A DNA stretch of 64,000 nt from Eledone cirrhosa (GCA_964016885.1 OZ024740.1:22630001-22694000), one strand, 5' to 3'. Shown: positions 8,634 to 32,988, counted from the stretch's first letter. Notes: generated from the letters alone by a model not told the origin. Numbers and translations: made by a program.

Positions 8634-8721
<88 letters not shown>

Positions 8722-8767
8722 AATTCCATTCACGGGAACAGCTAGATGATGTAAAACGGAGTATAAG

Positions 8768-9126
8768 TATCAAAATGAAAATCCGAAGGCAAGGTAAAAT
8801 TCCAATCATTTAATCACGACACATGTTTCAATAAGAGATAGATCGATTGTCAAGCCATGATCGATTATCACTGATCTCATCAGGTGAAAATGAATTGTCT
8901 TCAAATTCTTGATATGAGGGAGAAAAAATAACGATGCTCTCTCACAGAATTCATTCCCTCAATTCTGTTATTTTTTCTCCCTCATATCAAGAATTTGAAG
9001 ACAATTCATTTTCACCTGATGAGATCAGTGATAATCGATCATGGCTTCACAATCGATCTATCTCTTATTGAAACATGTGTCGTGATTAAATGATTGGAAT
9101 TTTACCTTGCCTTCAGATTTTCATTT

Positions 9127-9131
<5 letters not shown>
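8768..9131. mobile_element. Family E fold-back: ~165-bp inverted arms, each with a hammerhead (8814-8887 -, 9012-9085 +)
   Basis: Arms 8768-8932 and 8967-9131 are near-perfect reverse complements; tcac CTGATGA...GAAA catgtg TC gtga. Confidence 0.82.
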
Positions 9132-9169
<38 letters not shown>

Positions 9170-9173
<4 letters not shown>

Positions 9174-9689
9174 CAAGGTTTAGCAAATAAGAAAAAGTTT
9201 CAAACTAAATTTTAAAAAATTAACTTTACTTACTATGGTTACCTTTACCGAATCGGTTTCGAGTCTCAAAAATAAACGGACAGTCCATACAGCATCCGTT
9301 GCAAAGAAAAACACCCGTCAGAAGGGTCTTTTCACTCGGAGAATATAAAATTCTCGAGTTGAAATTACGAACTGGCGCTATTTGGTAATTTGAATTCGTG
9401 AATTTTATATTCTTTGAATGAAAAGAACCTTCTGACGAGAATCTTTCTTTGCAACGAAGGCCGTATGGACCCCGTTTATTTTTGAGATTCGAAACCGATT
9501 CGGTAAAGGTAACCATAGTAAATAAAGTTAATTTTTAAAAATTTATTTTGAAACTTTTTCTTATTTTCTAAACCTTGATTATATATGTTCTGGCTCGTTA
9601 ATTTATTAACCTGCCATTGAACCACATTGGCATATGGTTGGACAATACATGTGTCCCTAAGCGCCTTGTGCGTGTAGGAACATATACTC

Positions 9690-9690
<1 letters not shown>
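9170..9690. mobile_element. Family F fold-back with a hammerhead at 9427-9510 (+) and a degenerate inverted copy at ~9241-9326
   Basis: acctt CTGACGA gaatct...agattc GAAA ccgattcgg TA aaggt; homologous to 29033-29580. Confidence 0.82.
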
Positions 9691-9759
<69 letters not shown>

Positions 9760-10345
9760 TTATATATATAGATATATTTCTTGTAAGATAGCAGAAACGA
9801 AAAACTATAGAAAAGCAAGGAACCATAGAAACCCCTGAAATATGGGAACGACTTGGGATAAACTGAGAATATCTTGAAATATCTACAATATTTCACATCT
9901 TGACATTAGGTTGTAACTGTAGACGTGGTAAACAGACCTAAATATAGACATAGATGTGTATATCTATGTAAGTATGTATATATGTATGTATGTATGTGTG
10001 TATGTGTGTATGTATGTGTATGTGTATGTAAGTATGTATGTATGTATGCATGTATGTATGTATGTCTGTATGTGTGTGTATGTATGTGTGAATGTATGTA
10101 AATATGTATGCATATATCTGGCTGTCTGTCTGTATGTATGTGTGTTCATATGTATGTATGCATACATGAATGTATGTATGAATATGCATGTATATATGTG
10201 GTTGTGTATATACGAATGTATGTGTATATATATATATATATTTATAAACATATATAGTTTAAAATTACTTTTATATAGCTCTCTACATTCAGAGTTATAT
10301 ATATTTACACTTGCTACACACACACACACACACATATATATATAT

Positions 10346-10850
10346 GCCACAGCTGGAGATCGGTGTGGAAGCTGGACCTTCGTGAAGACCTGAAAATTCG
10401 CCTCTTCATTGCTGTAGTGGAGTCTGTACTGCTGTACGGGTATGAGACTTGGACACTGACCAAGAAACTAACTCAGATGGTGGATGGGTGCTACACAAGA
10501 ATGCTGAGGATGGCTCTGAACATTAATCAGTATTCACTGAGGGTGAAAAACTCAGAGCTGTATGGGAGCCTCCCAAAAGTCAGCTCAAAAGTGACACAGA
10601 GGAGACTAAGATTAGCTGGACATGCTCACCGACATCCAGAGATGATATTGCACTAAGTGCTCCTGTGGAGCCCCTACATGGACACACTGGAAGAGGAAGA
10701 CCAAGGTTAACGTATGTTGATGCCCTAAGGACAGACACTGGTCTGTTGGAGACGCAGGACATGGCAGCGATAATGAGGGACAGAGACCGCTGGAGAAAAC
10801 TCGTCCATGGATCTCGGGAATTGTACCCGCCCTAGAAAAGAAAAAAAATA
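10346..10850 (+). mobile_element. 5'-truncated RTE-clade LINE, C-terminal ORF fragment (disrupted)
   Basis: KIRLFIAVVESVLLYGYETWTLTK...YTRMLRMALNI...[11 protein letters not shown], then after a stop/frameshift [13 protein letters not shown]...[11 protein letters not shown]; this is the typical post-RT C-terminus of RTE LINEs. Confidence 0.85.
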
Positions 10851-11015: not shown

Positions 11016-11200
11016 GGACATTTTTTCCAATTCAAACCCACCCGTCCCCTCAATCTATCTTATTTCTCATTCTTTCTTCTGATGAAGGACTAGCGTCCGA
11101 AACGTTAAGACCCTCTTCCTGCTATATCTAGCGTTAACCTAATATATCCCTTCCATATACTGTACCGAATGTGTTGTTATTTCTGTTTATTTTTTACATA
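11016..11200 (+). mobile_element. Family G PLE-like 3' end with a minimal hammerhead at 11075-11110; reverse copy at ~16244-16432
   Basis: tctt CTGATGA a ggac-tagc-gtcc GAAA cg TT aaga; the reverse copy carries a 7-bp duplication within the motif. Confidence 0.75.
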
Positions 11201-12447: not shown

Positions 12448-12581
12448 TGCTAGGGAAAGGATCAGGGGTGTATAACACTCCACTTATCCAGCAGGCAGTA
12501 TGAGGTTAGCTCAATGTCTGAGGACAGAGCCGTAATATAATAAATAACAAAGAACGCTTATAGCATATGCATATCTTTACT

Positions 12582-12627
12582 TGCTAACACTGTTTCATCC
12601 GCACTATAAGTGGGACTCATCAGAGCA
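12582..12627 (-). ncRNA. Type I hammerhead in the PLE pLTR (family H); inverted copy at 15426-15471 (+)
   Basis: Plus copy reads tgct CTGATGA gtcc-cacttatagtg-cggat GAAA caatg TT agca. Confidence 0.8.
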
Positions 12628-13218
12628 TAAAGGTTAATTACATACCATACAAGCAATAACAAATCCAAGACATTGAAGAATGAAAGGTAATAATAGACGA
12701 TAAAGGATAAGAATAAAAATAAAAGTAAAAATAAAAATAAAAATAAAAATAAAAATAAAAATAAAAATAAAAATAAAAATAAAAATAAAAATAAGGGGTG
12801 CTATCAGTCACAGTTGGGCGGGGTGCTGTCAACATATAGTTACATACAAGCATACACATGGATAAGAGAACAGACAAGAGTAGACACATGGATAAGAGAA
12901 CAGACAAGAGTAGATAAGATAATGGGATTAGGTAAGAGTAGGTAAAAAATAGGTAAAAAATAGGTGAAAAAGACTTATAATATATATAAATAAGAAAATA
13001 TAAAGAAATACATAACAAACTTACATATAAAATATAGGGTAAGGAATGAGATAAAATAATATAAAATTAAAATTAAAAATTATATACATAGAACATAATA
13101 TAATATAATCGTAAAATAAGATAAAATAAGGTAAACTAAAATCAAATAACATAGACTAAATTAAAATAATATAATATAAGATATAATTAAATGTATAATT
13201 AAATGTAATTAAATGTAA

Positions 13219-13250
<32 letters not shown>

Positions 13251-14827
13251 AAATTAAATAAATAAATAAAATTTAAATTTAAATTTTAAAATTAAAATTT
13301 AAATTTAAATTTAAATTTAAATAAATAAATAAATAAATAAATGGAGTCAAATAAGTAAATAAATAAAATTAGATAACATGAAATGAAATAAAATAAAATG
13401 AAATAAAGTAAATTGAGATAAGATATATATTTTTTTTAAATATATCTCTTGAATATATCAGGGGCCCACGAAGGCACTAAGTGTCACAGTTATGTGTATC
13501 ACTTGACCAATTTTTAAAAATATATTTCTTGAAAACATCAGGGGCCCACGAAGGCACTAAGTGTCACAGTCACCAGTATCACTTGACCATTGCAAGGCAA
13601 TGGAGGCGTCCCAGGTTGGGCAGTCTCGAAAGTTCACTCGAAAGTCATGGGTGTGCATTCACACAGTTGAGCGGTGGGGTAGTCACAAACCGGTTCACAC
13701 ACGGGCAGGAGTCCAATGGTCAGAGAGAGGTGCATCGAAGGAGGTAGAAGAATTCACGTGCATTAGCAAGCGAGGTGAGGCGGGTTAAAGCAAGCAGACA
13801 CAGTTGTAGCGCATACAAAATATATATAAAAAGACAGAAGATATATAAAAAATAGCTTCAAGAGCCATTAAGTCACAGCATTGGGACATCACAAGATTGT
13901 ACACATCAATATGTTCAGCACGTATATGCACGTATACACACCACATGCATATGCAGAGACGGTATACATATATATATATATATATTTTTTATATATACAG
14001 ACACATATAACCACCTACACCCATACACATATAAATGTATACACGGACACACACGCACACACACACAGCGTAGGACACCCGGGTCAAAGCCGATATTAAA
14101 CACCGAAATACCACATTAGACCAGACCCACCACCACAGGTAATATATTCAAAACAAATACATACGATGAGATGTAGTAAGATAAAGTTGAAATCCTACGG
14201 AGATATTCATGTCTGCACGTGCCATTGACCGATTCGAGTGTACACAGACCGTTAGTAACTACGGAGGGCTATTGGGGCCAAAACGTTACTTTCGGGATCA
14301 TAAAAACGACCGTCAATATATGGAAGGCCGATCGTGCTAGAAAGACTACAACCCCGGGTAAGAGCTCCCAGAGGTCAGCCTGTAGATCTTGAACCACAGA
14401 ATATGAGGGCAACACGTATATGCGCCACGTATCCACTGCTTACGGCGGGATGGCACGGGTCCGCCTACAGTTACAGGCTAAATTTCTACTAGTGCAGCCT
14501 AAATCACAGTACACGCTTTACATAAATACATTACATCACAACTCATGCGCATACAGAGGTACAGATCAACAAGATATACGTCAGGATAGGTCCACCAATG
14601 CACTAATGGTGGGTAGGCCAGCGTGGATGGGTTACATCCACTGTGCCAAACAGGGGTGCTTATTAACATACACTCCCCTGCACACCCCAATATCAAGATC
14701 AATATCCTCCCACAGGCATACGTATACATTCACAGACTCGTATACATAGACGACCAACAATAGGAGACAGTTACACACAGTCAGAGACAGTTACACAAGA
14801 CAGCCCAACTGGAGGAATAAGGAAGTG

Positions 14828-15238
14828 CTAGCTAACAGGTTTAAAGTAGAAGAAAGAGCTTAATATTCGGTGGGGGCAAGAGGAAAAAATTTCAGACTTT
14901 CTATTTAGTAGAGGGCATTTAGCAAATATAATAGAGTGGGATTCGGCAAGGCACAGGTTACATACTCTACTATGAGGAGTATATGGATGGGATTTAGCAA
15001 CCTGCCGCCAAGTAAGTGTGTAAGGTGTTCGTGCATTTTTTAAATTATGGACGTACGCTGCCAAGGAGGTGGAGTTCCTCAGTTTATTATGTCTAAAAGT
15101 GCATTGATGAGAGTTAAACCTGGTCTTAAAGGGAGTGGAAGTTGATCCTATATAGGTCATAGTGGACGCCGTAGTTACCACATCACACGCATAAACTATG
15201 TTTCTAACAAGGCAGAAACCATTCAGGGGGCACCTGAT
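14828..15238 (-). pseudogene. PLE GIY-YIG endonuclease C-terminal fragment (open frame, 5'-truncated)
   Basis: The frame extends upstream of the listed ORF: IRCPLNGFCLVRNIVYACDVVTTASTMTYIGSTSTPFKTRFNSHQCTFRH...CNLCLAE...LLNRKSEIFSSCPHR. It has IVY...YIG plus CxLC and CxH motifs. Confidence 0.88.
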
Positions 15239-15520
15239 AGCACCCCTTATTTTTATTTTTATTTTTATTTTTATTTTTATTTTTATTTTTATTTTTATTT
15301 TTATTTTTATTTTTATTTTTATTTTTACTTTTATTTTTATTCTTATCCTTTATCGTCTATTATTACCTTTCATTCTTCAATGTCTTGGATTTGTTATTGC
15401 TTGTATGGTATGTAATTAACCTTTATGCTCTGATGAGTCCCACTTATAGTGCGGATGAAACAATGTTAGCAAGTAAAGATATGCATATGCTATAAGCGTT
15501 CTTTGTTATTTATATATATA

Positions 15521-15725
15521 TATAAGTGGTTACACAACAGTTAGTTTACCACACCGAGAACAATTGTTTCACCTTAGCGGATCCTCAGCTCGTAAAGGAT
15601 CCGCTAAGGTGAAACAATTGATCTCGGTTCGGTGAACTAACTGTTGTGTAACCACTTATACCTAACTCGTCCCTTGGACTGAGTGCTCTACCACTACGGA
15701 TATTACCTTCCAGTATTCTACCACT
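15521..15725. repeat. Fold-back repeat (hairpin 15521-15660); the same family occurs at 20395-20500
   Basis: ~65-bp inverted arms closing on ttagcggatcct/aggatccgctaa; downstream ctcgtccc.tggactgag is shared with 20451. Confidence 0.8.
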
Positions 15726-15957: not shown

Positions 15958-16149
15958 ACAAAGGAATTGTGGTAAGGAACCAGATGGACCATAACGCACC
16001 AGAGTACTCAATACTTAGGGTAGTAGAGTGGGAAATAGGAAAAAGTATGACCCCGACGCAGAGCTCAAGCCGTTTCGACGGCTATTTCTGGACTATTTAG
16101 TCCAGAAATAGCCGTCGAAAGGGCTTGAGCTCTGCCGTCAGGGTCATAC

Positions 16150-16244
<95 letters not shown>

Positions 16245-16900
16245 AAAGGTAAACAGAAATAACAACACAATCGGTACAGTATATATAAGTTATATATTAG
16301 GTTAACGCTTGATATAGCAGGAAGAGGTCTTAACGTTTCGGACGCTAGTCCTTCGTCCTTCATCAGAAGAAAGAATGAGAAATAAAATAGATTGTGAGGA
16401 CGGGCAGGATGGAATTGGAAAAAAATGTCTTAAGATAAAAATAACAGATCTATTCCTGTTGACATCTCTTACAAAACTGTTGTTGGTGGGGTTTTGTGTA
16501 TGATTTATTTTTTAGAAAAGTGGATTATGGAGCGCGTCTATGTGAAACGGAAAAAAAAAACGTTTTGTAAAAAGAGCTATACTTGAGCACTTGCGTAAGC
16601 ATGTGTTTGTGTGTGTGTGTGTGTGTGTATAAATAGTTAGTTAGATACAATATACATTATTTCCGATATATGATATTTCAATATTCTACCGTTGATACCT
16701 ATATATTTTTATATATTCACATTGTCAACATAAACAACTCTATACATTGCTTTGTGAAGCACTGTAGTGGAGTTGTGAGAAAAGATATAAAAGTACCGCC
16801 ATTGCACCGGGGTTCATTTATATATATGATGTAACTGGTACTAGCAGTGAAACCCATGCTGGTCCCGTCAATTTATTATATATTTATTTAATATAGAAAA

Positions 16901-17201: not shown

Positions 17202-17234
<33 letters not shown>

Positions 17235-17250
17235 GTTTTAATATAGATGA

Positions 17251-17299
17251 GATTCTACAGGACTAGAACTGTTTCATTCTTTAGAAATCATCAGGAATC
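17251..17299 (-). ncRNA. Type I hammerhead ribozyme (family I, copy 2)
   Basis: Reverse complement: gauuc CUGAUGA uuuc-uaaa-gaau GAAA cag-uucuaguc-cug UA gaauc. Confidence 0.85.
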
Positions 17300-17395
17300 A
17301 CATATATGTATATAGAATCACATATATATATAGAATCATATATATATATAGTGACGAAACATAAGTCAATTGCATGAACTCATAATCCTTTATTT

Positions 17396-17451
17396 ACTGC
17401 TATATATATTTCGATGATAGCCATTGAATGGCTATGACCTCATCAGGCAGT
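17396..17451 (-). ncRNA. Type I hammerhead (family A, intact stem I)
   Basis: Reverse complement: acugc CUGAUGA g..auagccauu-c-aauggcuau..c GAAA uauaua UA gcagu. Confidence 0.8.
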
Positions 17452-17525
17452 TAGTCAGTTCTTAGATATGCAAGCTCTGTGTTTTTGGTGTTAATGGTGT
17501 CAGAGCCTTGGCACATATGAGCTTG

Positions 17526-17573
<48 letters not shown>

Positions 17574-17577
<4 letters not shown>

Positions 17578-18930
17578 ATTATGAAGAGAGAAGAAACATT
17601 TAGATATAATTAGTAATAAGATGTATCATACCTAAACTGCTTCTAGATTCCTCGACTACGTAGTTTCGTGGCATAATCAAAAACAATACATCATAGAGAT
17701 ATAGAGCTTTTGTGAGGTCTGCCGACTTATCAAGAGGATACCTCATTTTACTAGCTTCAAAGAGCACGTCTATAAGATGTGAGATAGAATCCCAAAAGGC
17801 GGAGGGGGAGTCAATCACGTGATACAACGGTCAAGAAACAGAGCTAAGCCCCTTATAACCCTGAAAAAAATACCACGGAGGCGGAGGGGGTATTTATATC
17901 GAGGCCGTAGAAGTGGTGGTTAAGGAGGCAAGAAGTATGAGTAATGGCAGCTTTCCAGCAGTCACTACACTTCAAGGATTACTCGACCAGGGGGAGTTAT
18001 AAACAATATATTGAGAAACACACAGATACATGCGGACACATACATATACATGAATATATCCACATCCATCCTTGAGTTAATGGTGCCAACCTTAACCGAT
18101 GTTGCTCTATGAATAACTGGGACAAACCAATCCGAATGGATTTATATCTAAATGTTTCTTCTCTCTTCATAATGTACTTTTAGCTCTGATACTGGTTCAG
18201 TCTAATCCATTCGGATTAGTTTGTCCCAGTTATTCATAGAGCAACATCAGTTAAGGTTGGCACCATTAACTCAAGGATGGATGTGGATATATTCATGTAT
18301 ATGTATGTGTCCGCATGTATCTGTGTGTTTCTCAATATATTGTTTATAACTCCCCCTGGTCGAGTAATCCTTGAAGTGTAGTGACTGCTGGAAAGCTGCC
18401 ATTACTCATACTTCTTGCCCCCTTAACCACCTCTTCTACGGCCTCGATATAAATACCCCCTCCGCCTCCGTGGTATTTTTTTCAGGGTTATAAGGGGCTT
18501 AGCTCTGTTTCTTGACCGTCGTATCACGTGATTGACTCCCCCTCCGCCTTTTGGGATTCTATCTCACATCTTATAGACGTGCTCTTTGAAGCTAGTAAAA
18601 TGAGGTATCCTCTTGATAAGTCGGCAGACCTCACAAACGCTCTATATCACTATGATGTATTGTTTTTGATTATGCAAACGAAACTACGTAGTCGAGGAAT
18701 CTAGAAGCAGTTTAGGTATGATACATCTTATTACTAATTATATCTAAATGTTTCTTCTCTCTTCATAATGTATTTTTAGCTCTGATACTGGTTCAGTCTA
18801 ATCCATTCGGATTGGTTTGTCCCAGTTATTCATAGTGCAACATCGGTTAAGGTTGGCACCATTAACTCAAGGATGGATGTGGATATATTCATGTATATGT
18901 ATGTGTCCGCATGTATCTGTGTGTTTCTCA

Positions 18931-18935
<5 letters not shown>
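17574..18935. mobile_element. Family J: ~596-bp monomer, ~0.95 copy (-) head-to-head with ~1.3 copies (+), carrying a variant hammerhead
   Basis: tatctaaatgtttcttctctc at 18145 and 18741 (period 596); 17574-18141 is the reverse complement of the monomer; (TA)n flanks. Confidence 0.88.
18608..18698 (+). ncRNA. Hammerhead with a U3-A8 variant core; minus copy at 17649-17738
   Basis: tcctc TTGATAA gtcggca...ac GAAA ctacgtag TC gagga. Confidence 0.72.
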
Positions 18936-18990
<55 letters not shown>

Positions 18991-19086
18991 AAGTATTTCC
19001 GAAGAAAAAGAAAAGGAAAAAAGAGTGCTCTATGTATAAATCAGAGCTATTGAATTAGAAAGTGAACAACACAATATATAACTATT

Positions 19087-19159
19087 CCATTACCAAAGGT
19101 TTCAGGATCCTAGACAGTATTAGCAGTATTAACACACTTCTAGTTCGTTCATCAGACAG
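19087..19159 (-). ncRNA. Probable hammerhead (family K)
   Basis: Reverse complement: cugu CUGAUGA ...cuaga...ucuag... GAAA cc-uuu-gg UA augg; stem I relies on wobble pairs. Confidence 0.5.
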
Positions 19160-19246
19160 AGGAGGTTATGAAATATATGAAAATGCGAAATTGAAAGTGA
19201 GGGTGGAAAATTAATGTAAAATATACATAAAAGATACACCACTTTC

Positions 19247-19312
<66 letters not shown>

Positions 19313-19722
19313 TGTATTTATTTATGTATGTATGTATGTATGTATGTATGTATGTATGTATGTATGTATGTATGTATGTATGTATGTATGTGTGTGTGTG
19401 TGCGTGTGTGTGTGATGAACTATGAAAATAAAACTAACATAGGTTCTTAATTAATTCATTGTTTCAGGGGTTGATTGATCATGGTAAATCGATATATTGT
19501 CTAATAGGTAGTGATTATGTCATCATTGATCGATCTCATCATCTTCCTCAGAAACAATCAAGGATATCGAGACTAGAAATAGGTGGTGACATAGCCACTA
19601 ACTATTAATCACTATATCGATTTACCATGATCAATCAACCCTCTGAAATGATCGTAAAACAATGAACTAATTAAGAGCATATCTTCGATTTTTATTTTAT
19701 TGTCATTGTTCAACACACACAC

Positions 19723-19811
<89 letters not shown>

Positions 19812-20314
19812 CACACACACACACACGCACACACACACACACATATATATATATATACGATCATCGATAATAATAGTCGATCACTATAACTAATTTTAAA
19901 AAATATCGTGTAAAGTACTTTTAGAGACGGCAAAAGTGTGTGTATGTATGTGCATATGTGTGGGTGTCTGTGTTTGTTTGTGTGTGTGTGTGTGGGGGGG
20001 GGTCTGTCTTTGTTTGTATTTTCCGCTGCTGTCAGTTTTCCTATCAAGACAGAAGGAACCAGTCTCCAAAACCGGAAAGAAGGTTATTTCTTTATAATTT
20101 ATTCAAGATCAACTCTATCTTAATGTATGTTATTAAAAAGAAAATAATTATTTATACACAGAACGTGTTAGCTTCTAACAGAAAAAACACAGCTCCATCC
20201 CTGGAAATTGTAGAGAATAAACCATAAATATTTACAAGTTTATTAGTTAGTTTAGCCTTCCTTCATGAACATTCTGGAACACTCCCCCTGACCGGCATAT
20301 TTGACTAAGCCCCA

Positions 20315-20397
<83 letters not shown>

Positions 20398-20497
20398 GAC
20401 AATTGTTCTCGGTATGGTGAACTAACTGTTGTGTTACTACTTCTACCAAACTCGTCCCATGGACTGAGGTGGTCTACCTCATATTACCTTCCAGTGT

Positions 20498-20592
<95 letters not shown>

Positions 20593-20646
20593 GTGAAAGA
20601 GTGAAGAATAACATAGTCGGCTGTACAAAAAGGGTTTTATTTATAG

Positions 20647-21174
20647 TTTAGGGAATTGGTCACACGGTTATTTACTTTGGTAAACGCCACTGCAGGCCAA
20701 CCACTAATTAAATTCGATACAGATATAAGGTTAACAAACTTACTCGTGAGTGAACTGACCGAGAGGCGGTCGCCAAATTAGCAGCATGGTAAATTAAATG
20801 TTATTGAGACACGAGTAACAGAATAATGATTTCAACAGCAGAAATTAGAGATGAAATGTATGTTTATTTTTGTTGTAGCACAAATAATGTTGGTTAACTT
20901 GTATGGTTGAAGTTACACATAAAAAGAGGTTACAAAAGAGAATGTGTCATTGCGCCGGAAAGTCGGCAGGTTAAGGTGCAAAATCTCACCGTCACATGTA
21001 CGTGTTGCTCGTTCGAAGTCCCTCGTGCGAGAGAGAGATTTTTCAAATCTTCGCGCGTAATTTCTCCCTCAGGACGCGTAGGGATACATCCTCCTCTACT
21101 GGTGCTGATTGTCTGAGCTGAGCCAAATCACGCACAGAGAATGTATGTGAGCCCGCGGAATGTAGGTCACTACA
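20647..21174 (-). repeat. 3' LTR (528 bp)
   Basis: Matches 25984-26515 with about 8 substitutions and 2 small indels (counted by eye). Confidence 0.93.
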
Positions 21175-21685
21175 ATCACCTCCGACCAGATTTTTAATAA
21201 AAATCGTAAAACAAACGATAGCATGGAAGAACTAGAAGTTGTAAATTGGTGCAAGAAAAATTCCTGTAGTATATGACAATGAAGCCAAAGCCTTACAAGG
21301 TACTCTTTACAAGTTATTGAAACCGGTTTCAAAACGAACAATATAGAGGTGAAATAGGTTAATGCATGCAAGCATTACACAAAAAATATACAACAAATGC
21401 AATAATTATACACATGCAGCAATAAATGCAAAATGCATTAAAAATACCATTCGGAGTAAGGGTCCCAAATGCGATAAAAAAAAAAAATATTTTGCTAGGC
21501 AATGAAAATGCCATATGTAGCAAAGCTATAAAAATGCACTAAAAAAATGGACTGTGTCAGAATTGACAACAGTCGTAATGTTACGAAAAATAACATATAT
21601 TGACACTCCCGTAGGCAGTCAAGAATCAAAAAGCAACACAATGAAATATACAGCAAAAACAATTGAAAGAAGAAAAGAATACAAT

Positions 21686-24600
21686 TCAGTTTATATTACT
21701 GCATGGCTTACGGGGCCAATGCACCCTTCGCCCAGAACGGGTCGTAGTTCTGTATGTTGATGGTGGTGGTGGTGGGGGGGGGGGAATAGGCGTATGTGGC
21801 AAAGAAAAAGAAGGGGGCATTTGAGTTTCAAGTGTCATTGTGTCATTGTCCAGGTTTGCTCGTTTGAGACGATCAACGGAAACCGTTTCCCTGGAACCCC
21901 GAATGTCCAGTGTGAAATGTTTGTCTGTGCGAGCAAGCACACGATAGGGTCCAGGGTACGGCCTTTGAAGAGGGGGGTCTCACGGCGTCGTCTCTAACGA
22001 ACACATGTGTCCACAAGGCAATATCCCTTGGGACGGCAGGTTTTACAGTTTGCTTCCTAGTGTCCATCGGTGGTAAATCCTGGAAGTAAGAAGGAAGTCG
22101 GGACACGTAGGAAGCGGGATCCTGCGAAGCAAGATCAACAGGAGCAAGCATTTGCCCCGGTAACGCAAGAGGAGTACCATAAATCAATTCGGCCGGGGAG
22201 AACCCAAGATCCACCTTTATTGTCGACCGAATACCTAACAACACAATAGGTAGGTACTCACTCCAACGTGAAGAGTCCATTGAAGCCCTTAAAGAGTCTT
22301 TAAGTTGTCTGTGAAATCTTTCCACCATTCCGTTTGATGCTGGATGATATGCCGTGGTTCTTATGCGAGTAGCGCCAATAATTTGTGTTAATTCACGGAA
22401 GAGGTTCGATTCAAATTGACGACCGCAGTCTGTTGTTATTGTGGTTGGTACTCCAAAACGAGCGATCCATGCAGATACGAGAGTACGCGCTGTCGTTTCA
22501 GCAGTGATATCTGTCATAGGGATGGCTTCAGGCCAACGCGAAATACGGTCAACGATCGTCAAAATATACGAATAACCACGACTAATCGGCCACGGGCCGA
22601 CGATGTCCACATGGATGTGACGAAATCTGGCATCAGGACAGGTGAAAGTTCCGAGAGGAGTTTTAACGTGCTTATAAACCTTTGACTTTTGGCAAGCGAC
22701 ACAGGTACGGCACCAAGCAGCAATGTCACGTCTCATATCAGGCCAGAAAAATCTGGCTGTTATGAGTTTTACTGAGGCTGATACTCCTGGGTGAGAAATG
22801 CCATGTAAAGCGAGAAACACAGTTCGTCGATGTTCCACTGGGACTAGAGGTGGTGGTGAGTCCAACGAAACATCACACAGTATTTGTCCGTCAGCCGTTG
22901 AGATCGGAATGTATTTCAGTTTGCAATGTACAAACTCTGGTGATGTAACATCCAACGATTCGAGAGTGGGTTGAGCAGCTGCCATTCGATGTAAATCTAT
23001 CTCCTCGGAAGACGAAATCGATGCGATCGGCAGGCGAGACAGCGCATCGGCCGCTGTATTCAAAGAACCCGGAATATGTTGAATGTCGTTCGTGAACTGT
23101 GAGATGAAGTCCAGATGTCTCGTTTCTCTGGGCGAGTATTTGTCTGCTTTAGTTCGAAGAGCAAACGTCAAAGATTTATGATCAGTGAAAATTATGAACA
23201 TTCTACCTTCAAGAACATGAGCAAAATGTTTCACTGATAAATAAATTGCTAATAGCTCCCTTCCAAAGGTGCTATAGCGAGTTTCGGCAGGCTTTAACTT
23301 TCTCGAAAAGAACTCGAGTGGTTGCTGTAAACCCTCACACTTCTGCTGTAAGACTGCGCCCACGGCGCTATCCGAAGCATCAACACAGAGCGACAGCTCG
23401 GCGTTGGGCATGGGGTGGGCGAGCAAAGATGCAGTCGCTAACGCTTTCTTCACTTTCTCAAAATCCGCCAGGTGCGTTGCATTTAATGAAATGTTCATAT
23501 TCTTCCGTCGACAGTTTTTAAAAATGTCTGTCAACGAGGACAGTAAGCTGGAACAATTAGGCACGGATCGCCTATAAACATTCACAAGGCCCAAGAATTG
23601 CCGTAATTGTCGAAGCGAACTTGGCGGAGGCAAATTCAAAATTGCCTTAACTTTTTCCGGAAGGGGCCGAATACCATCGGCATCAATAAGATGGCCCAAA
23701 AATGTTAGCGATATCGAGCCGAAAACCCACTTAGCGGCATTAACACGAACATTATATTTCTGTAAACGCCGAAATAAGATATCCAAATGTTTGGAATGTT
23801 GTTCAGGAGAAGAACTAGCAATCAGTACATCATCGATATACGTGTAAACAAAATCGAGACCACGAGTGACATCATACATGAATCGTTGGAAAGTACTTGC
23901 AGCATTTCTAAGTCCGAAAGGCATAGTGAGGAACTCGAATGATCCGAAAGGAGTGGCAATAGCAGTCTTTGGAATATCCTCATTTTTAACCGGAATTTGA
24001 TTATAAGCGCGGATCAAATCAAGCTTAGAAAAGATTCTGCAACCCTGCAATGACGATGCAAAATCCTGCAAATGCGGGGTTGGATAACGGTCAGGCACAG
24101 TAATCGCGTTTAAGCGTCGGTAGTCACCCGTCGATCTCCAATCACCAGAAGATTTAAGTACCATATGCAGAGGCGATGCCCAAGGACTTGTGGATCGCCG
24201 AATTATTCCTAATTCCAGCATGTGGTCGAATTCAAGACGTGCAGCTTTCAACTTCTCTGCAGATAATCTTCGAGGACGTGAGAAAACGGGTGGACCTGTA
24301 GTGGATATAAAGTGTTCCATCACATGATCCGGACTAGCAATTCGTAATCTTCCTTGCGTCAGCTGTGGGAATGATTTTAACAAACTGTGATACTGGTTGC
24401 CCACTTCAGCCAAGAAAAAAGCAGGGCTTACTGTGGCGATCTCCGGCTTTGTACCCTCGAACGATAGGCCTGTATTAGCATCAAAAAGTCGTTGTCTGCG
24501 GATGTCAATCGACAAGGAAAAATGGTGGAGGAAATCCGCTCCCAAAATGGTGTATGGCAAGTCGACGATAGTAAACTTCCACTTCAGTTCACGACACAAA

Positions 24601-24848
24601 CTTTTAAACCGAAGAGGAAGCGAAATTTGCCCGTACGTTCGAATGGCCGTGTTGTTAATTGCTCGTAAATTGATATTTGATTCAGATGGGTTTTTTTTAA
24701 GATAACTGACTGGCCAAATACTTAGTGACGCGCCAGTGTCGACAACAAAAATTTTTTTTGACTGCAGATCGTACACAAAAAGATGACGGTTTGGTCGAGT
24801 TTCCCAGAGTTCACTAGCCGCCCCTAGTGGCTCTGATTGGCGTTTTCC
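21686..24848 (-). CDS. pol: Pol polyprotein (protease, reverse transcriptase, RNase H, integrase); one frameshift near 21975 before the GPY tail
   Basis: The 967-aa ORF has VVDTGA (PR), MPFGLRNA...YIDD (RT), DASD...RELLA...TDH (RH), HPG...CVAC and HVDIVGP...NGMVER (IN). The ORF at 21686-21940 supplies VSVDRLK. Confidence 0.95.
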
Positions 24849-25643
24849 GAACTCCTATAGTTACAAGGCGCCCGACAGCGCTGCGCCCGACTGCCAAAGT
24901 TAACATGATACCAACAAATCGAAGAATTACTGCTGCCTGAAGTGTTGGCGAGGAACAGAAGACGGTGGCGAACGGTACTCGTAGCGGTTTCGAGGAATAG
25001 CAGACGGAGGCGAACGGTACCTTAAACGTTGAGAAGGCTCTCTCTGTTGTACGGTCAAATCCTCCACTTTTTGGGTGAGCGCTTCGATCATCTCCAACAG
25101 TTTGCTGTCGGCCACAGAAGAATTGCGTGGGGGAACAGAAGAAGCCACACAAGGATTATGCCGACTGCTGTTAGAGTCCACCTCTAGTATTTTATCCGCG
25201 GATGCGGCAAGTTGATCTAACGACTCCCTCTCCAAATTATTGACCAAGATCATTTGCGCACTTGGCGGTAAACGGGAGAAAAATAGCTGTTTAATGAAGG
25301 ATGTATCAATTCCTTGGGAGTCGCTCAGCTCACGTAGATCTCGCAAATAGGAGGTTGGCGTTCTGTCACCCATTTGCGCATCATCTAACAATTCCCGAAA
25401 ACGACTTTCCGCTGACTTGGTATTCCTCCGAATAATTTCCCCTTTCAACGAGCCATAAGTAACGTCTGCGGCTAAATTGGTTATCACGTCCTTCACGGAA
25501 TATGCCAACGACACAGGCAAGCCACTAACTAGTACCTTCAGTTTATGCTGTTCTTTGGTTTTGGTTAAATCAAAATAGCATTCAAGCTGCAAAAACTATA
25601 ATTTGATGTCGTCTGCGAAGGACGGAAAATGATGTGGAGTCAT
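24824..25643 (-). pseudogene. gag: Gag with an in-frame TAG at codon 16 and a frameshift near 24950; C-terminal CHCC knuckle
   Basis: MTPHHFPSFADDIKL*FLQLECYF...MGDRTPTSYLRDLREL...LFFSRLP...ADKILE; the shifted frame ends [31 protein letters not shown] (Cx2Hx9Cx3C). Confidence 0.87.
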
Positions 25644-25968
25644 GATTGCCGAAGAATCTCCCAGGACGAACTATGTCTTTGAAGCAGCCACGCGACCAAA
25701 AGGCCACACTGGAATCCAAAATCTTATTCACTCGAATTCAACTGAAATTCTTTTTGAAAATTCTCGCCGGCCAAAATAAAATTTGCATAATAAAAAAAAT
25801 TATTTTCCATGAAAATTATTTGGTAAGAAAATCCCAAGATGGCTGATTGAAAAATGTGTTTGTGATGAAGAAGCCGTCATGTGGCACGATGCAGCCAATC
25901 AGATGGCTGGGATTGAAGAAGACAAGCTGTACGCGGGAAAACTATGCTTGCAAGGCAAGTTGTTCTTA

Positions 25969-25982
25969 GTCGGGGGTCACCA
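25969..25982 (-). promoter_or_regulatory. Primer-binding site complementary to the tRNA-Trp 3' end
   Basis: TGGTGACCCCCGAC lies 1 nt after the 5' LTR; it has one extra C relative to the usual TGGTGACCCCGAC. Confidence 0.8.
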
Positions 25983-25983
25983 A

Positions 25984-26515
25984 TTTAGGGAATTGGTCAC
26001 AGGGTTATTTACTTTGGTAAACGCCACTGCAGGCCAACCACTAATTAAATTCGATACAGATATAATAAGGTTAACAAACTTACTCGTGAGTGAACTGATC
26101 GAGAGGCGGTCGCCAAATAAGCAGCATGGTAAATTAAATGTTATTGAGACACGAGTAACAGAATAATGATTTCAACAGCAGAAATTAGAGATGAAATGTA
26201 TGTTTATTTTTGTTGTAGCACAAATAATGTTGGTTAACTTGTATGGTTGAAGTTACACATAAAAAAGAGGTTACAAAAGAGAATGTGTCATTGCGCCGGA
26301 AAGTCGGCAGGTTAAGGTGTAAAATCTCACCGTCACATGTACGTGTTGCTGGTTCGAAGTCCCTCGTGCGAGAGAGAGATTTTTCAAATCTTCGCGGGTA
26401 ATTTCTCCCTCAGGACGCGTAGGGATACATCCTCCTCTACTGGCGCTGATTGGCTGAGCTGAGCCAAATCACGCACAGAGAATGTATGTGAGCCCGCGGA
26501 ATGTAGGTCACTACA
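25984..26515 (-). repeat. 5' LTR (532 bp)
   Basis: Sense strand starts TGTAGTG and ends CCCTAAA, followed by the PBS. Confidence 0.93.
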
Positions 26516-26859
26516 ATAGTATTAACAATTGTTTGATGGATCAGGTGAGTCTAAAGGCCGCTAATCACTCGAAATTGCGTCACTCGACCTCTAACTGGAT
26601 TAGCTAAAACGATAACTTGTTATTCCATATATATATATTTTCAAAATATTCAAACGTAAACAACAAAGTAAACAGTACATTACAATGAAGAAATATATTA
26701 TATTAACGCTTCATAGAATAGGAGAAGAGTCTGTACCTTCATTAGAATATAGAATGAGAAATAAAAGACGAAATAGAATGATAGACGGTGAAAATGGGAA
26801 GGAAAGGAATAAAAGTTTTCTTGGGTAAAAACATATGTATTTGTGTATGGACGCTGGAT

Positions 26860-27045
26860 TGGCAGTATCGGTAGAAGGTCGGACTCCATGCTTTGCAGCA
26901 AAGAATTACGGCCCTTTATGGTCTGAGTTCAAATCCCGCTGAGGTTAACTTTGCCTTTCATCCTTACGGGGGTCGATAAAATAAAGTACTAGTAATACAC
27001 TGGGATAATTGCTGGCCTTGTGCCAAAAGTAGAAACCATTATAAT
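26860..27045 (+). mobile_element. tRNA-derived SINE with a conserved central domain
   Basis: A-box-like tggcagtatcgg, B-box gagttcaaatccc, then gcctttcatccttacgggggtcgataaaat; further copies at 3045-3277 and a degenerate one at ~34800-35000. Confidence 0.75.
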
Positions 27046-27121
27046 TAAGCATAGGTACACACACACACACACACACACATACACACACACACACACACAC
27101 ACATATACATATATATATGTG

Positions 27122-27420
27122 TGAAGGCGCATGGCTTAGTGGTTAGAGCATTGAGCTTGCAATACGGAAATTAGTTCGATTCGGTGATGTGTTGTGTCCT
27201 TGAGCAAGACAGTTTATTTCACGTTGCTCCAGTTTACTCAGCTGTAGACATGACTTGCGATGTCACTGGTGTATCGGCCGTTGCCTTGGACAGCATAGGT
27301 GGCGTGGAGAGGAGAGACTGGTATACATGGGCGACTACTGGTCTTCCACAAACAATCTTGCCCGGACTTGTGCCTCGGAGCCTCGGAGGGGAACTTTCCA
27401 GGTGCATATCCGTGGTCATT
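27122..27420 (+). mobile_element. Second tRNA-derived SINE
   Basis: A box tggcttagtgg, B box agttcgattc, followed by gtgtccttgagcaagaca...ctcagctgt, a common SINE core motif. Confidence 0.75.
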
Positions 27421-27505
27421 CCTGACCATGGTCATTCCTGACCATGGTCATTCCTGACCGTCGTCATTCCTGACCGTCGTCATTCCTGACCGTGGTCATT
27501 CCTGA
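27410..27505. repeat. 16-bp minisatellite, 6 copies, at the SINE tail
   Basis: ccRtSgtcattcctga repeated six times. Confidence 0.93.
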
Positions 27506-27529
27506 ATTAAGCGTATTTAAGACGAGGTT

Positions 27530-27822
27530 AATTCACCATAATTGCTTTATTGCATGATATATATTTCTGTTACATGGTTATGCGTGTGACTTCATCAGAT
27601 GCTCATATAATCATCAGGTGTAGTTATTCAATCATGTCGCTGGTCATGTATTACCATTCAGTTGTGAAGACATACAACCAGACATTTGGTAATACATAAT
27701 CAGCGACATATCACCAGGATTGCATAACTATACCTATGATTGTATATGAATCTGATGAAGTCACATGTATAACCATGTCACAGAAATATATATAATGCAG
27801 TAAAGCAATTATGGTGAAGTAA
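27530..27822. mobile_element. Family L diverged fold-back with hammerheads at 27552-27602 (-) and 27748-27798 (+)
   Basis: Minus copy: gcau CUGAUGA aguca...aca GAAA uauaua UC augc; the arms are imperfect reverse complements. Confidence 0.72.
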
Positions 27823-27986
27823 TCCCCTCTTAACTACTGTTATTTGATAAATGAATACTCCGTCACTCCTAAACACCAACTCTTAGCTGGGATAAACTAC
27901 TGACGAGGAGTGCATTTTGATCGGTCGAACCGGCTTATCCTCACGAAGTTACACTGTAACAACCACGTATTAGCACCTTATGTGGC

Positions 27987-28017
<31 letters not shown>

Positions 28018-28057
28018 TGTGAATGTATCTATAGTATATTTGGCAATATACCGTTTG

Positions 28058-28103
<46 letters not shown>

Positions 28104-28108
28104 ATTGA

Positions 28109-28976
28109 CCACTGATTGACCTCGATGTCACGTGATTGTTTCTTTTTGAATTTGCCACAGACGTAGAGGCAGTGATTTTCTCAATGGCTGGGATTTCAGT
28201 CCACGCTTCGCTATTTCCTTCCCACTGAATTATTTTTTTAATAAGTTTCCAGAGTCCTCGCTATGCCTGGAAACTTACATGAAAATAGACTTCCCTGACG
28301 ACGGAATGCTTTTCAATATATTCTTCGGAAAATATATTTACTCCATTCCAGAAACTAATTAGTTGGAAGTGATATTTTAGTAAGTAAGTCAATTTTATAA
28401 TTTTTTTATAATTTTATAATTTTCTTATCTTACGTCTCTCATATTATTGTTCTGCAACCCCATGCATTGAATCACAATGTTACTAAGACAAAACCTATAT
28501 ATTTGCTAGCATTGATATGCATCTGTATGTATATAAATGTTACTAGATATAAATTCTTTATAATTATCTCCAATTCATTTGTCGAGCAATATTGGCCATG
28601 ACTGCTGCTATAGTAGTAGGCAGGCCGCTGTCTTATTAACAACTCGCTTTCCACTGATTGACCTCGATGTCACAGGATTGTTTCTTTTTGAATTTGCCAC
28701 AGACGTAGAGGCAGTGATTTTCTCAATGGCTGGGATTTCAGTCCACGCTTCGCTATTTCCTTCCCACTGAATTATTTTTTTAATAAGTTTCCAGAGTCCT
28801 CGCTTTGCCTGGAAACTTACATGAAAATAGACTTCCCTGACGACGGAATGCTTTTCAATATATTCATCGGAAAATATATTTACTCCATTCCAGAAACTAA
28901 TTAGTTGGAAGTGATATTTTAGTAAGTAAGTCAATTTTATAATTATTTTATAATTTTATAATTTTCTTATCTTACT

Positions 28977-28982
<6 letters not shown>
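28109..28982 (+). mobile_element. Family B: 542-bp monomer, ~1.6 tandem copies, hammerheads at 28289-28370 and 28831-28912
   Basis: ccactgattgacctcgatg at 28109 and 28651; acttcc CTGACGA c ggaatg...cattcc a GAAA ctaattag TT ggaagt. Confidence 0.86.
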
Positions 28983-29032
<50 letters not shown>

Positions 29033-29035
<3 letters not shown>

Positions 29036-29580
29036 GTAAAGTCAATTTTTTAAAATTTATTTTGAAACTTTTTCATTATTTACTAAACCTTGTTTATATT
29101 TGTTCTGGCTCGTTAATTTATTAACCCGCCATTGAACCACATTGGCACTTGGTTGGACAATACATGCGTACCTTGGCGCCTTGTGCATGAAGGGACGTAT
29201 TTCATATTACTACTACCTCCACTAACGTTGAGAACAAACCGGGTCATTCCGACTGCTGCTGATAACAGCGGTGGCTAGTTTGACCTACCTCCTTTTGCCT
29301 CTATCTTTGCTACGGCCCTTGATAAACCTGTTCTACATCATCCACTCTCATCCCAGGAACAGTTTTTGATAGCGCTAGTTTGTGATTTAAATTCAGGAAT
29401 TTTATATTCTTTGAATGAAAAGAACCTTCTGACGAGAATCTCTCTTTGCAACGAAGGCCGTATGGTCTCAGTTTTATTTTTGGGATTCGAAACCGATCGG
29501 TAAAGGTAACTATAGTAGGTAAAGTCAATTTTTTAAAATTTATTTTGAAACTTTTTCATTATTTACTAAACCTTGTTTAT
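29033..29580 (+). mobile_element. Family F: 483-bp monomer plus ~65-bp terminal redundancy, hammerhead at 29424-29507
   Basis: taggtaaagtcaatttttt at 29033 and 29516; acctt CTGACGA gaatct...ggattc GAAA ccgatcgg TA aaggt. Confidence 0.86.
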
Positions 29581-29583
29581 ATA

Positions 29584-29656
<73 letters not shown>

Positions 29657-29659
<3 letters not shown>

Positions 29660-30481
29660 GTAAGTATGTATGTATACGTACATACATATATGTATACAGA
29701 CGTACAGTAGTATGTATATATATACATACATGCACATATATATATATATGCTCGTATCGGTTTACCGAACATTTATTATAATGCTCGGTTTGTTTGTTTG
29801 TAAACAAACAAACAGCCCGAGCATTATAATAAATGTTCGGTAAACCGATACGTGCATATATATATGCATGTATGTATATATATACATACTACTGTACGTC
29901 TGTATACATATATGTATGTACGTACACATATATACATACTTACATTTAAGTAAGTGCCGTACTAAGAGTGAGAAATGAAATTTCGTTTCATTCTATTCCA
30001 TTTATCGTTTTCGGTGTGCCCGGCCGACTGAACTCACTCGATATGCAAATTAGGCTGCTCAGCCGTTAATATGCATAAGGAAAGTATATACTTTCAGACG
30101 TTCAACCATCTGGCAGGAAGGTATACGATGCTGACGATAGCTAATAAGCTTGAAACTAGTACATCGTTCCTGTGTCAGTGTTGAACAAAAAGGTGACGTG
30201 GTTGCATAAACACTGTACGGCGTAATTCGGGCTGTTTGTTTGTTTACAATAATGTTTATTATAATGCTCGTTTTGTTTGTTTACAAACAAACAAACCGAG
30301 CATTATAATAAATTGTCGGTAAACCGATATGTGCATATATATGTGTGCATGTATGTATATATATACATACTACTGTACGCCTGTTTACATATATGTATGT
30401 ACGTATACATACATACATACTTATATTTAAGTAAGTGCCGTACTAAGAGTGAGAAATGAAATCTCGTTTCATTCTATTCCA
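29657..30481. mobile_element. Family M: 479-bp monomer, ~1.4 copies (+) with an inverted partial copy on the left; hammerhead at 30125-30167
   Basis: gcattataataaat at 29821 and 30300; acgatg CTGACGA t-agct-aata-agct-t GAAA ctag TA catcgt. Confidence 0.85.
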
Positions 30482-30483
30482 TG

Positions 30484-30617
<134 letters not shown>

Positions 30618-30645
30618 AACAAAAGATGGTTAAAAGAGTTCCATG

Positions 30646-30716
30646 TATTTTATTATGCGCATTTCAAAAACAAATATCATCATGCAATAATATTTGTGTT
30701 TTCATCAGATAAAATA
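30646..30716 (-). ncRNA. Type I hammerhead (family N); partial fold-back copy at ~3792-3890
   Basis: Reverse complement: uauuuuau CUGAUGA aaacacaaauauu...gauauuuguuuuu GAAA ugcgca UA auaaaaua; 8-bp stem I and palindromic stem III. Confidence 0.85.
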
Positions 30717-31928: not shown

Positions 31929-32988
31929 ACCAGATAGAAAAATGCGTACAGCAAAAAAAAGTAATATTGTTGGAATATAAACCTTTAAAAATACAGGACA
32001 AGAAACTAAAATAAAACTTTAAAAGAATAGGACAAGAAACTAAGATAAAACTTTAAAAGAATAGGACAAGAAACTAAGATAAAACTTTAAAGAATTGGAC
32101 AAGAAATAAAAAATGTTACAATAATATTAGTGGCAACATTTTTATTGGTAAACAATCGAGTTCCACATTCATATGCTCTGGGTTCCACATTCAGAGGTCG
32201 TCGTCAGACCGGGGGGATCATTTGATCCTGGTTTGAACACCAATTGGGCCATAACCATACCCCTATTTCATCATTCGGCGACACGCCTCATGTGTCATGC
32301 ATAATGTGAATGGATCCATGGGCCCATGAGCACAGATCTTGAGCAGCAGCGGACGGTCTTGTCGTCCCGCTCATCCTTGATCTTGACCAACCCGTCCATC
32401 TTCTCCTTGCATCTTGTCCTTGAGTTCAAGTCCGGCAGTCCAGATGAATGCGTGCCACAGCTTTCTGGTACAGGAAGGAGGAGCAGGAGGACTGGAGGGA
32501 TGACGGGACAGAGGGAGGGAGGACCGGTGGTTGAGGGAGGTGCCGTAGTCGGTGGTCAGAGTCGACATCTTGTCCCGGTCGTCTTCTCCATCTTCGTCTG
32601 GTGTTGCGGGACCAGAAGTGCATTCTTTGAGGAGACCTGCAGCTGCATCGGCCAATTCTTCTTGCAATGGTCATTCTGACGGAGCAGAAGTGCTCAGCCA
32701 ACCAACCCCAACCAGAACCAACCGCTCAGGGGCAACGCACAATGAGAGCATGACAATTATTATGCACTAATCAAGAAGATACTGGGGCATAGCACAGGAA
32801 ACGAATAAAAAAATTTTGCCACTAATATTATTGTAAAATTTTTTATTTCTGTTCAATTCTTTAAAGTTTTATCTTAGTTTCTTGTCCTATTCTTTTAAAG
32901 TTTTATTTTAGTTTCTTGTCCTGTATTTTTAAAGGTTTATATTCCAACAATATTACATGTTTTTGCTGTACGCATTTTTCTATCTGGT
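31929..32988. other. Inverted-repeat cassette: ~175-205-bp AT-rich arms with 34-bp subrepeats around a ~680-bp GC-rich core
   Basis: 31929-32136 is the reverse complement of 32816-32988, with one subrepeat fewer on the right. Confidence 0.8.

Follow-up and report, generated by a model that had tools for sequence, protein, structure and literature searches.

The closest described relatives of the elements discussed here are the animal non-LTR retrozymes (that is, retrozymes other than those with long terminal repeats, LTRs), which have units of 150-450 bp and for which the production of tandem complementary DNA (cDNA) from circular RNA has been proposed (PMC7229834). Retrozyme monomers of 51-972 bp have also been described and linked to the terminal repeats found in Penelope-like elements (PLEs), the connection being shown for Xenopus (Li, Clavereau and Pollet 2026, bioRxiv 10.64898/2026.07.22.740005; hereafter Li 2026). 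The origin of the tandem arrangement is contested, with circular RNA (PMC7229834), an uncleaved transcript (PMC11167929) and later amplification of the DNA (Li 2026) all having been put forward. The subject of the present analysis is a set of five repeat families, termed J, B, F, M and C, in a 64,000-nucleotide (nt) stretch of the Eledone cirrhosa genome (GCA_964016885.1 OZ024740.1:22630001-22694000), referred to as the window, whose short, young, double-armed loci with mappable ends make the question of tandem origin testable. The preferred reading, to which a probability of roughly 80% is given, is that all five are non-coding, non-autonomous animal non-LTR retrozymes mobilised in trans by the reverse transcriptase (RT) and GIY-YIG endonuclease of a PLE, with priming at cut (TA)n, a start at a conserved hairpin and copying beyond unit length in one event. 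The class is already known and this is not a new system; its value is mechanistic.

How are these loci built? Periods were taken from an ungapped offset scan, arms are measured in monomer units with a plus sign for the forward and a minus sign for the inverted arm, and phase is the number of nt counted from the predicted cleavage site. The arms, the spacers between them and two older copies are as follows.

17574-18141, minus strand: J inverted arm, 0.95 unit; 3' end 80-81 nt past the cleavage site; adjoins (TA)n at 17529-17573
18142-18934, plus strand: forward arm of J, made up of 1.33 units of 596 nt; ends 3' at about phase 243, on the (TA)n of 18931-18987
28109-28982, plus strand: B, 1.61 units of 542 nt; 3' end 76-80 nt past the second cleavage site
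28983-29032, unstranded: (TA)n spacer, B to F
29033-29577, plus strand: F, 1.13 units of 483 nt; start about 14 nt past the cleavage-site phase, end 75-80 nt past the next
29578-29657, unstranded: (TA)n spacer, F to M
29658-29800, minus strand: inverted arm of M, 0.30 unit; begins at an intrinsic hairpin's apex and ends 3' at phase 266
29801-30481, plus strand: forward arm of M, made up of 1.42 units of about 481 nt; ends 3' at phase 321-325
4719-5691, minus strand: inverted arm of C, made up of 2.07 units of 470 nt; ends 3' at phase 306, a site homologous to that of the M+ end
5692-6957, plus strand: forward arm of C, made up of 2.69 units; ends 3' at about phase 234, a site near-homologous to that of the M- end
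4285-4556, plus strand: older B copy, 5'-truncated, 87% identical; hammerhead present; ends on (TA)n
9172-9700, both orientations: older F copy, head-to-head, 86-90% identical; arms end at phase 80 and at about phase 185-196

The periods of 596 for J (18142-18339 against 18738-18935, 198 nt, 98.0% identity), 542 for B (28109-28443 against 28651-28985, 335 nt, 98.2%) and 483 for F (29033-29099 against 29516-29582, 67 nt, 100%) agree with a first-pass annotation of the window. Its figure of 479 for M holds locally, the period being 481 for the greater part of the repeat, with 483 where it begins (90-94.5% identity); C has a period of 470, or 469 in one stretch. Its range of 1.1-2.7 tandem units is matched by the longer arms (1.13-2.69), and the lack of coding capacity that it reported is borne out by longest ATG open reading frames (ORFs) on the circularised monomers of 27-45 aa for J, B, F and M and 73 aa for C. 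The GC content of the monomers is 34-40%, and within 35 kb there are two loci each of B and F and one each of J, M and C. The tandem units of J and M described there are present, together with inverted 5' arms that had been overlooked, and the interval 17574-30481 given there is not a single object: J (17574-18934) is followed by an unrelated Gypsy-type element (20647-26517) and then by B, F and M, three neighbouring insertions within 27987-30615 that have only (TA)n runs between them.

Fundamental to the assignment is the hammerhead ribozyme. On both strands of 1-35300 a strict type I pattern finds 20 motifs, against a mean of 0.07 (maximum 1) in 60 block-wise dinucleotide shuffles, and stem III is fully self-complementary in 16 of them. 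Each of the five monomers bears one type I motif, the strict matches being J- (C3 at 17733), B twice (28295 and 28837), F (29429), M (30131) and C four times; the J+ copy falls outside the 20 because of a private change in stem II. The motifs at the J, B, F and M loci are listed below.

17649-17738, minus strand: J hammerhead with a U3-A8 core (UUGAUAA), in which loop II is long and stem III a 10-nt palindrome; cleavage predicted to follow 17654
18608-18698, plus strand: second J hammerhead, core at 18613 and H17 at 18693; stem II weakened by the private change
28289-28370, plus strand: B hammerhead copy 1, CUGACGA core, GUU triplet, H17 at 28364
28831-28912, plus strand: B hammerhead copy 2, H17 at 28906
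29424-29507, plus strand: F hammerhead, GUA triplet, H17 at 29502
30125-30167, plus strand: M hammerhead, short stem III, GUA triplet, H17 at 30161

The earlier statement of one hammerhead each is thus right for the monomers and not for the loci, which hold two in J (on opposite strands), two in B and one each in F and M. Stem II of the J motif is bulged, and one C copy (5754), like J+, has private defects. The stem III palindromes are weak as hairpins and pair as dimers (-4.8 to -16.6 kcal/mol), an arrangement known for animal and PLE hammerheads (PMC4209133), and U3-A8 covariation has previously been reported in natural hammerheads (PMC3088659). Rfam gives no matches at the gathering score and, among the 150 listed of 207 matches in E-value mode, which are dominated by miRNA-like hairpin noise, the hammerheads are represented by four sub-threshold HH9 matches, all in family C. 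Since Rfam lends no support, the call for J, B, F and M rests on the strict pattern and the folds; a relaxed-core hammerhead pattern found nothing further. The set, with 20 motifs in 35 kb, is unusually dense and diverse, lies wholly below Rfam thresholds and includes a natural U3-A8 core.

Two consecutive complete hammerheads on the same strand, which Li 2026 takes as the mark of an active element, occur at these loci in B and C and not in J, F or M. From its motifs, B could, alone among J, B, F and M, excise a monomer unaided (C being the other among the five), and the J, F and M loci look like dead-end daughters. Between the old and young B copies (4437-4506 and 28295-28364) loop II keeps a UUCG-capped hairpin with an altered stem sequence, which suggests that this hairpin is under selection as RNA structure.

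At the level of sequence these elements are animal non-LTR retrozymes as PMC7229834 defines them, with non-coding head-to-tail units, one type I hammerhead in each, GC below 50%, no LTR, primer-binding site (PBS) or polypurine tract (PPT) seen, a self-paired circular fold and co-occurring PLEs. Unlike the retrozymes described there, the units are 470-596 nt long and the loci, known here from the DNA sequence alone, are short (1.1-2.7 units per arm), embedded in (TA)n and often head-to-head with fixed 3' ends. The elements resemble those of Li 2026 in having a size within 51-972 bp, in occurring as monomers, dimers and multimers and in their proposed PLE origin, but local amplification after insertion is suggested there, whereas the loci described here favour synthesis at insertion. 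A likeness also exists to newt satellite 2 and the Schistosoma W-elements and SM-alpha, which are transcribed hammerhead repeats of a few hundred bp (PMC8490949), transcription being presumed in the present case; these include long arrays, in contrast to the dispersed short loci seen here. A plant-type LTR retrozyme (type III hammerhead in LTRs, PBS and PPT, 4-bp target duplication) was rejected, as the motifs are type I and the redundancy runs from 62 nt to more than one unit. A literature search on Penelope and hammerheads in octopus or cephalopods found no paper on such elements, and the main text of a 2026 repeat annotation of Octopus vulgaris has no mention of ribozyme, hammerhead or retrozyme. 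Nor did the literature searched yield a mapping of conserved 3' ends or double arms in retrozymes, a point on which supplements may bear.

What is the relationship between the families, and what is to be made of their similar size? The monomers were compared in 20 pairwise comparisons (10 pairs in 2 orientations) with 200 shuffles each. C and M score 179 against a shuffle maximum of 48, or 146 against 48 with the hammerhead removed, in an alignment that spans the whole circle; they are 59.5% identical in a global alignment and colinear around the circle. B and F score 53 against a maximum of 42, having the hammerhead and 80 nt in common, and their first 250 nt with the hammerhead removed still score 51 against 42, the likeness past phase 80 not being significant (p 0.27). 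For B-J the likeness is marginal (p 0.007, tied with the shuffle maximum and in TA/TG-rich sequence), F-J shows no likeness after hammerhead removal, and six other comparisons give p 0.01-0.05, with the four printed alignments lying mostly in AT- or TA/TG-rich stretches. On these comparisons the five families are two to three lineages (C/M, B/F and J), and their description in the first-pass annotation as mostly dissimilar was overstated. The similar size is in part a matter of descent, C-M and B-F being related; independent convergence on one size is rejected. The size constraint that had been proposed is not demonstrated, given that (i) there are only two to three lineages, (ii) a period is visible only if an arm exceeds it, and (iii) published monomers span 51-972 bp.

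The geometry of the loci is that of paired arms with orderly ends. In J, M, C and the older F copy two arms are joined at their 5' ends, with 3' ends that differ between the arms and face outwards onto (TA)n; B and F are direct only. Each of the 11 arms that were mapped has its end on (TA)n or (TAT)n, target-site duplications being unreadable inside a microsatellite. The arms of B, F, J- and older F- end at phase 75-81, approximately 10 nt past a long AU-rich hairpin that lies 3' of the ribozyme, and the older B copy ends at 50 by its own numbering (69 in that of B). The C arms end at 234 and 306 and those of M at 266 and 321-325, with J+ (243) and the older F+ arm (about 185-196) ending elsewhere. 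These positions correspond between relatives: B80 falls on F80 in 3 of 3 alignment settings, C306 on M325 in 6 of 6 pairwise settings and C234 on M253-265 in the pairwise alignments, the observed M end being 266 and MAFFT placing C234 beside M266. A post hoc simulation gives 0.011 for three families ending within 6 nt and 0.008 for the C/M pairing. For this small sample, with post hoc p of about 0.01, 3' ends at an internal stem-loop site downstream of the hammerhead match what PLE internal initiation would be expected to leave.

The 5' ends vary, with both arms of M and of the older F copy starting at the apex of a palindrome, and tails are about 55-160 nt. Random permutation of both ends, which the first-pass annotation had implied, is rejected, as the 3' ends lie at conserved sites and only the 5' ends are free. 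That annotation had also held fixed end points to count against an RNA template; the ends are fixed in part, in a manner that points to PLE internal initiation and not against such a template. Pure fold-back copying fits M and the older F locus but is rejected for C, where the inverted arm runs about 70 nt beyond the end of the forward arm. Twin priming of the L1 style fits J (36-nt overlap) and C (73-nt gap), and not M.

Why should a Penelope enzyme be responsible? Inverted 5' copies, tails and a (TA)n bias are PLE hallmarks (PMC8557442, PMC3846280), and the loci are like endonuclease-containing (EN+) PLEs (Neptune, Poseidon) and Chlamys/MRC1 in their partial tandems, palindrome-joined inverted 5' copies, one-sided tail and (TA)n or AT-rich target (PMC8557442, PMC3846280). 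They also resemble EN+ PLEs in their type I hammerheads with palindromic helix III and in an internal initiation downstream of the hammerhead (PMC11167929, PMC4209133). The anole PLE cuts AT-rich DNA, extends both strands and has an internal start within a stem-loop, 111-118 nt into the ORF, its hammerhead being cut at +26 (PMC11167929), so that by subtraction of these figures its start lies about 85-92 nt downstream of the cut. Unlike EN+ PLEs, the present elements lack an ORF, their tails of about 55-160 nt compare with 30-40 bp, and for C and M the sites of initiation are some 235-325 nt away from that of cleavage. Two PLE fragments occur in the window itself.

12535-15519, minus strand: protein-coding PLE, 5'-truncated, Neptune-like; GIY-YIG ORF at 14831-15238; hammerheads at 12623 (minus) and 15430 (plus); inverted 5' arm
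1-502, plus strand: second PLE, a broken GIY-YIG C-terminus

The first of these is built like the retrozyme loci: a hammerhead is situated close to each outward 3' end and the inverted arm terminates on (TA)n. It also has a 3' non-coding region of about 2.2 kb. Its ORF (14831-15238, minus strand) matches GIY-YIG weakly (at E 0.006 it misses the curated cutoff); an exhaustive protein search with the endonuclease returned 4026 relatives at E up to 0.001, where word-indexed protein searches found nothing. Of eight relatives looked up, the one that is named comes from a pipefish. In two long relatives a YRDD RT motif precedes an endonuclease at the C-terminus, with a cysteine-rich linker. Pfam reports no RT family in five endonuclease relatives, and the RT call for the relatives therefore rests on the visible YRDD motif; PDB holds no match for P0156. 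The architecture seen in these protein sequences (YRDD, cysteine-rich linker) fits Neptune/Nematis as defined in PMC8557442, and the fragment at 12535-15519 shows the class of enzyme that is present, a candidate class of partner. Mobilisation by a non-PLE retrotransposon, a long interspersed nuclear element (LINE) of RTE, CR1 or R4 type that targets TA repeats, has some grounds, in that an RTE-like LINE 3' end lies within the window (about 10279-10835) and LINE partners were left open by Cervera 2020 (PMC7229834). It is nonetheless quite improbable, as there is no poly(A) and no LINE tail in common, and the head-to-head arms, the fixed internal 3' ends past the hammerhead and the one-sided tails resemble the PLE fragment of the window.

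The timing of multimer formation can be approached through the divergence between units. Differences within arms and between opposite arms are, respectively, 19/1654 and 26/2594 for C, 4/197 and 10/738 for J, and 13/197 and 13/276 for M; the units of B differ at 6/332 positions and those of F at 0/62. Of the 12 variable sites in C, 11 are private to one of 4-5 copies. Divergence within an arm being similar to that between opposite arms, synthesis of the multimer in one event at insertion is favoured over later local amplification. The latter route, as put forward in 10.64898/2026.07.22.740005, would have solo PLE terminal repeats inserted as single units and later grown by local unequal exchange in the manner of satellite birth, and the one variant that adjacent C units have in common speaks for it. 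This route appears improbable for the present loci: both opposite C arms are multimeric with intra-arm divergence not below that between arms, the non-integer lengths of 1.13-1.61 units oppose unequal exchange, and a single unit would have no internal repeat with which to seed a 470-600-nt duplication joined exactly end to start. A further explanation is an assembly artefact, or else segmental or tandem duplication at random. Repeats are extremely abundant in the window and structures of this kind pose difficulties for assembly, but the units differ by 1-6.6% at private sites (the identical 62-nt redundancy of F being an exception), B and F have second, diverged loci and every monomer holds a ribozyme motif, so that this explanation is barely credible.

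If a PLE enzyme copied the elements at insertion, what was the template? All seven arms of at least 0.95 unit cross a cleavage site, the C arms 2 and 3 times, and the template would therefore be circular, or a multimer left uncleaved, or else linear RNA with jumps during copying; one linear monomer produced by cleavage is excluded unless jumps occur. Circular templates for beyond-unit copying have been proposed before (PMC7229834, PMC4209133). The same PLE machinery could instead have used a linear template, either an uncleaved multimeric read-through or a terminally redundant RNA that runs from the cleavage site as far as about +80 in the following unit and is copied with jumps, an account that contests the circle step only. 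It is a serious contender, if a little short of an even chance: such a terminally redundant RNA would accommodate J- as well as F (from phase about 14 up to 80 in the following unit), the dominant substrate of the anole PLE is uncleaved RNA (PMC11167929), and many animal hammerhead motifs cleave weakly or not at all. The repeated crossings in C, and the two in B, would nevertheless require repeated clean jumps or several uncleaved hammerheads, which would sit in the very dimer arrangement expected to activate them. The near-star divergence of the C units speaks against a linear template too, and with 5' truncation the copying of existing arrays only would be expected to shrink arrays over the generations. 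Between closed circle and linear template the odds are about even.

Folding the monomers as circles, a check put forward in the first-pass annotation, gives compact structures in four of the five families, with z-scores against 25 shuffles each of -12.0 for C, -9.7 for M, -4.8 for B, -3.7 for J and -1.2 for F. The C/M consensus folds as a circle at -51.1 against -15.9 +/- 3.5 and contains 24 two-sided compensatory pairs, where 20 column shuffles reach at most 18, which is suggestive only, coming from two sequences, of a conserved compensatory structure. The earlier preference for an RNA intermediate over random segmental duplication has held, on the ribozyme motif in each monomer, the four folds, the C/M compensation, the (TA)n or (TAT)n ends and the second B and F loci, although without the size constraint attached to it.

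Some 120-130 nt upstream of the cleavage site, a 12-nt block is identical in C (6121-6132) and M (30042-30053). The block includes an invariant octamer, ATGCAAAT, and pairs into a stem in which the opposite strand is variable. By analogy to newt satellite 2, the octamer is possibly a promoter element of the small nuclear RNA (snRNA) type, and the C/M lineage may carry a putative snRNA-type promoter of its own.

The events that would connect these features under the PLE reading can be set out as a cycle. A locus with two same-strand hammerheads would be transcribed and cut as a dimer ribozyme via the palindromic stem III, as motif and literature suggest, to yield a unit-length RNA. With about even chances, this unit would be ligated into a circle with the structure indicated by the fold and covariation. 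A PLE endonuclease would cut (TA)n, and the freed 3' end would prime the RT at a fixed internal site next to the AU-rich hairpin, in keeping with the mapped positions. The enzyme would then pass the cleavage site, continue beyond one unit and halt variably, so as to generate in each event the observed 1.1-2.7 units with their equal divergence. Finally, both target strands would often be extended, or the cDNA would fold back at a hairpin, giving the head-to-head arms with their one-sided tail. The fullest form of this view, in which each locus is a fossil left by a Penelope enzyme that reverse-transcribed a covalently closed ribozyme RNA of 470-600 nt in rolling-circle fashion, with both (TA)n strands primed at lineage-conserved hairpins and C/M maybe having its own promoter, is advanced tentatively. 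If true, the genomic evidence would mean that retrozyme circles are the real template of transposition and that their tandem structure is made at insertion; with the C/M promoter included, a single invertebrate genome would harbour several lineages of viroid-like genomic parasites that transcribe themselves.

A number of observations weigh against the PLE reading or its circular form. The motifs of J, B, F and M go without Rfam recognition, both at the gathering score and among the 150 of 207 E-value matches listed, B has a GUU triplet and J a non-standard core. The circular fold of F is no better than its shuffles (z -1.2), and the B/F consensus fold gives no signal (-9.6 against -11.0), the global alignment having slipped out of register. 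With regard to the ends, 1-2 loci per family lie behind the statistics, which are post hoc, four of the seven long arms end away from +80, and MAFFT leaves C306 11-15 columns off M321-325. With regard to the units, adjacent C units have the one variant in common and the 3'-most unit of M is more diverged from the other two (9/139 and 13/197, against 4/137). Cleavage is dispensable for the anole PLE, with uncleaved RNA its dominant substrate (PMC11167929), and 8 of 9 Xenopus dimer elements gave no cleavage in vitro (Li 2026, bioRxiv 10.64898/2026.07.22.740005). Lastly, the homology to PLE terminal repeats shown for Xenopus in Li 2026 was not found here, no monomer matching the termini of the two truncated PLE fragments within the window.

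Further hammerhead sequences lie around the retrozyme loci. At least five more short families, all below unit length, are found at 8720-9128, 11027-11200, 16239-16429, 3982-4150, 17351-17519, 17225-17297 and 30616-30716; these end 21-98 nt past the cleavage site on (TA)n or (CA)n, and that at 8762-9128 is head-to-head with a one-sided tail of 51 nt. Six inverted-repeat elements flanked by microsatellites (19425-19698, 27496-27854, 15525-15725, 20399-20506, 15961-16169 and 3794-3896) give no match to the strict hammerhead pattern and are probably decayed or truncated elements of a retrozyme-like kind, among which one family, seen at 15525-15725 and again at 20399-20506, perhaps contains another kind of RNA motif.

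The window holds other repeats as well. The first 35 kb of the window is animal-type DNA rich in microsatellites, and among its mobile elements is the Gypsy-type element that separates J from B.

20647-26517, minus strand: Gypsy-type LTR retrotransposon with 534-bp LTRs of 97.8% identity and a 993-aa open pol frame

The closest matches of this pol are 53-60% identical and carry chiefly flatworm names. The 3' end of a LINE ORF at 10279-10835 is probably RTE-like; Pfam gives only a weak DUF6451 match. Fragments resembling a short interspersed nuclear element (SINE), of one family, occur at 26930-27047 and 3036-3277, the latter as an 85-bp tandem, and an element at 31929-32988 with terminal inverted repeats of about 200 bp that hold 34-bp subrepeats is possibly a non-autonomous DNA transposon. 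The remainder of the window consists of two satellites, one of 34 bp (35346-59499, 711 copies, with a strong A and C strand skew) and, adjoining it, one of 41 bp (59659-63998, 106 copies), with a short core common to both.

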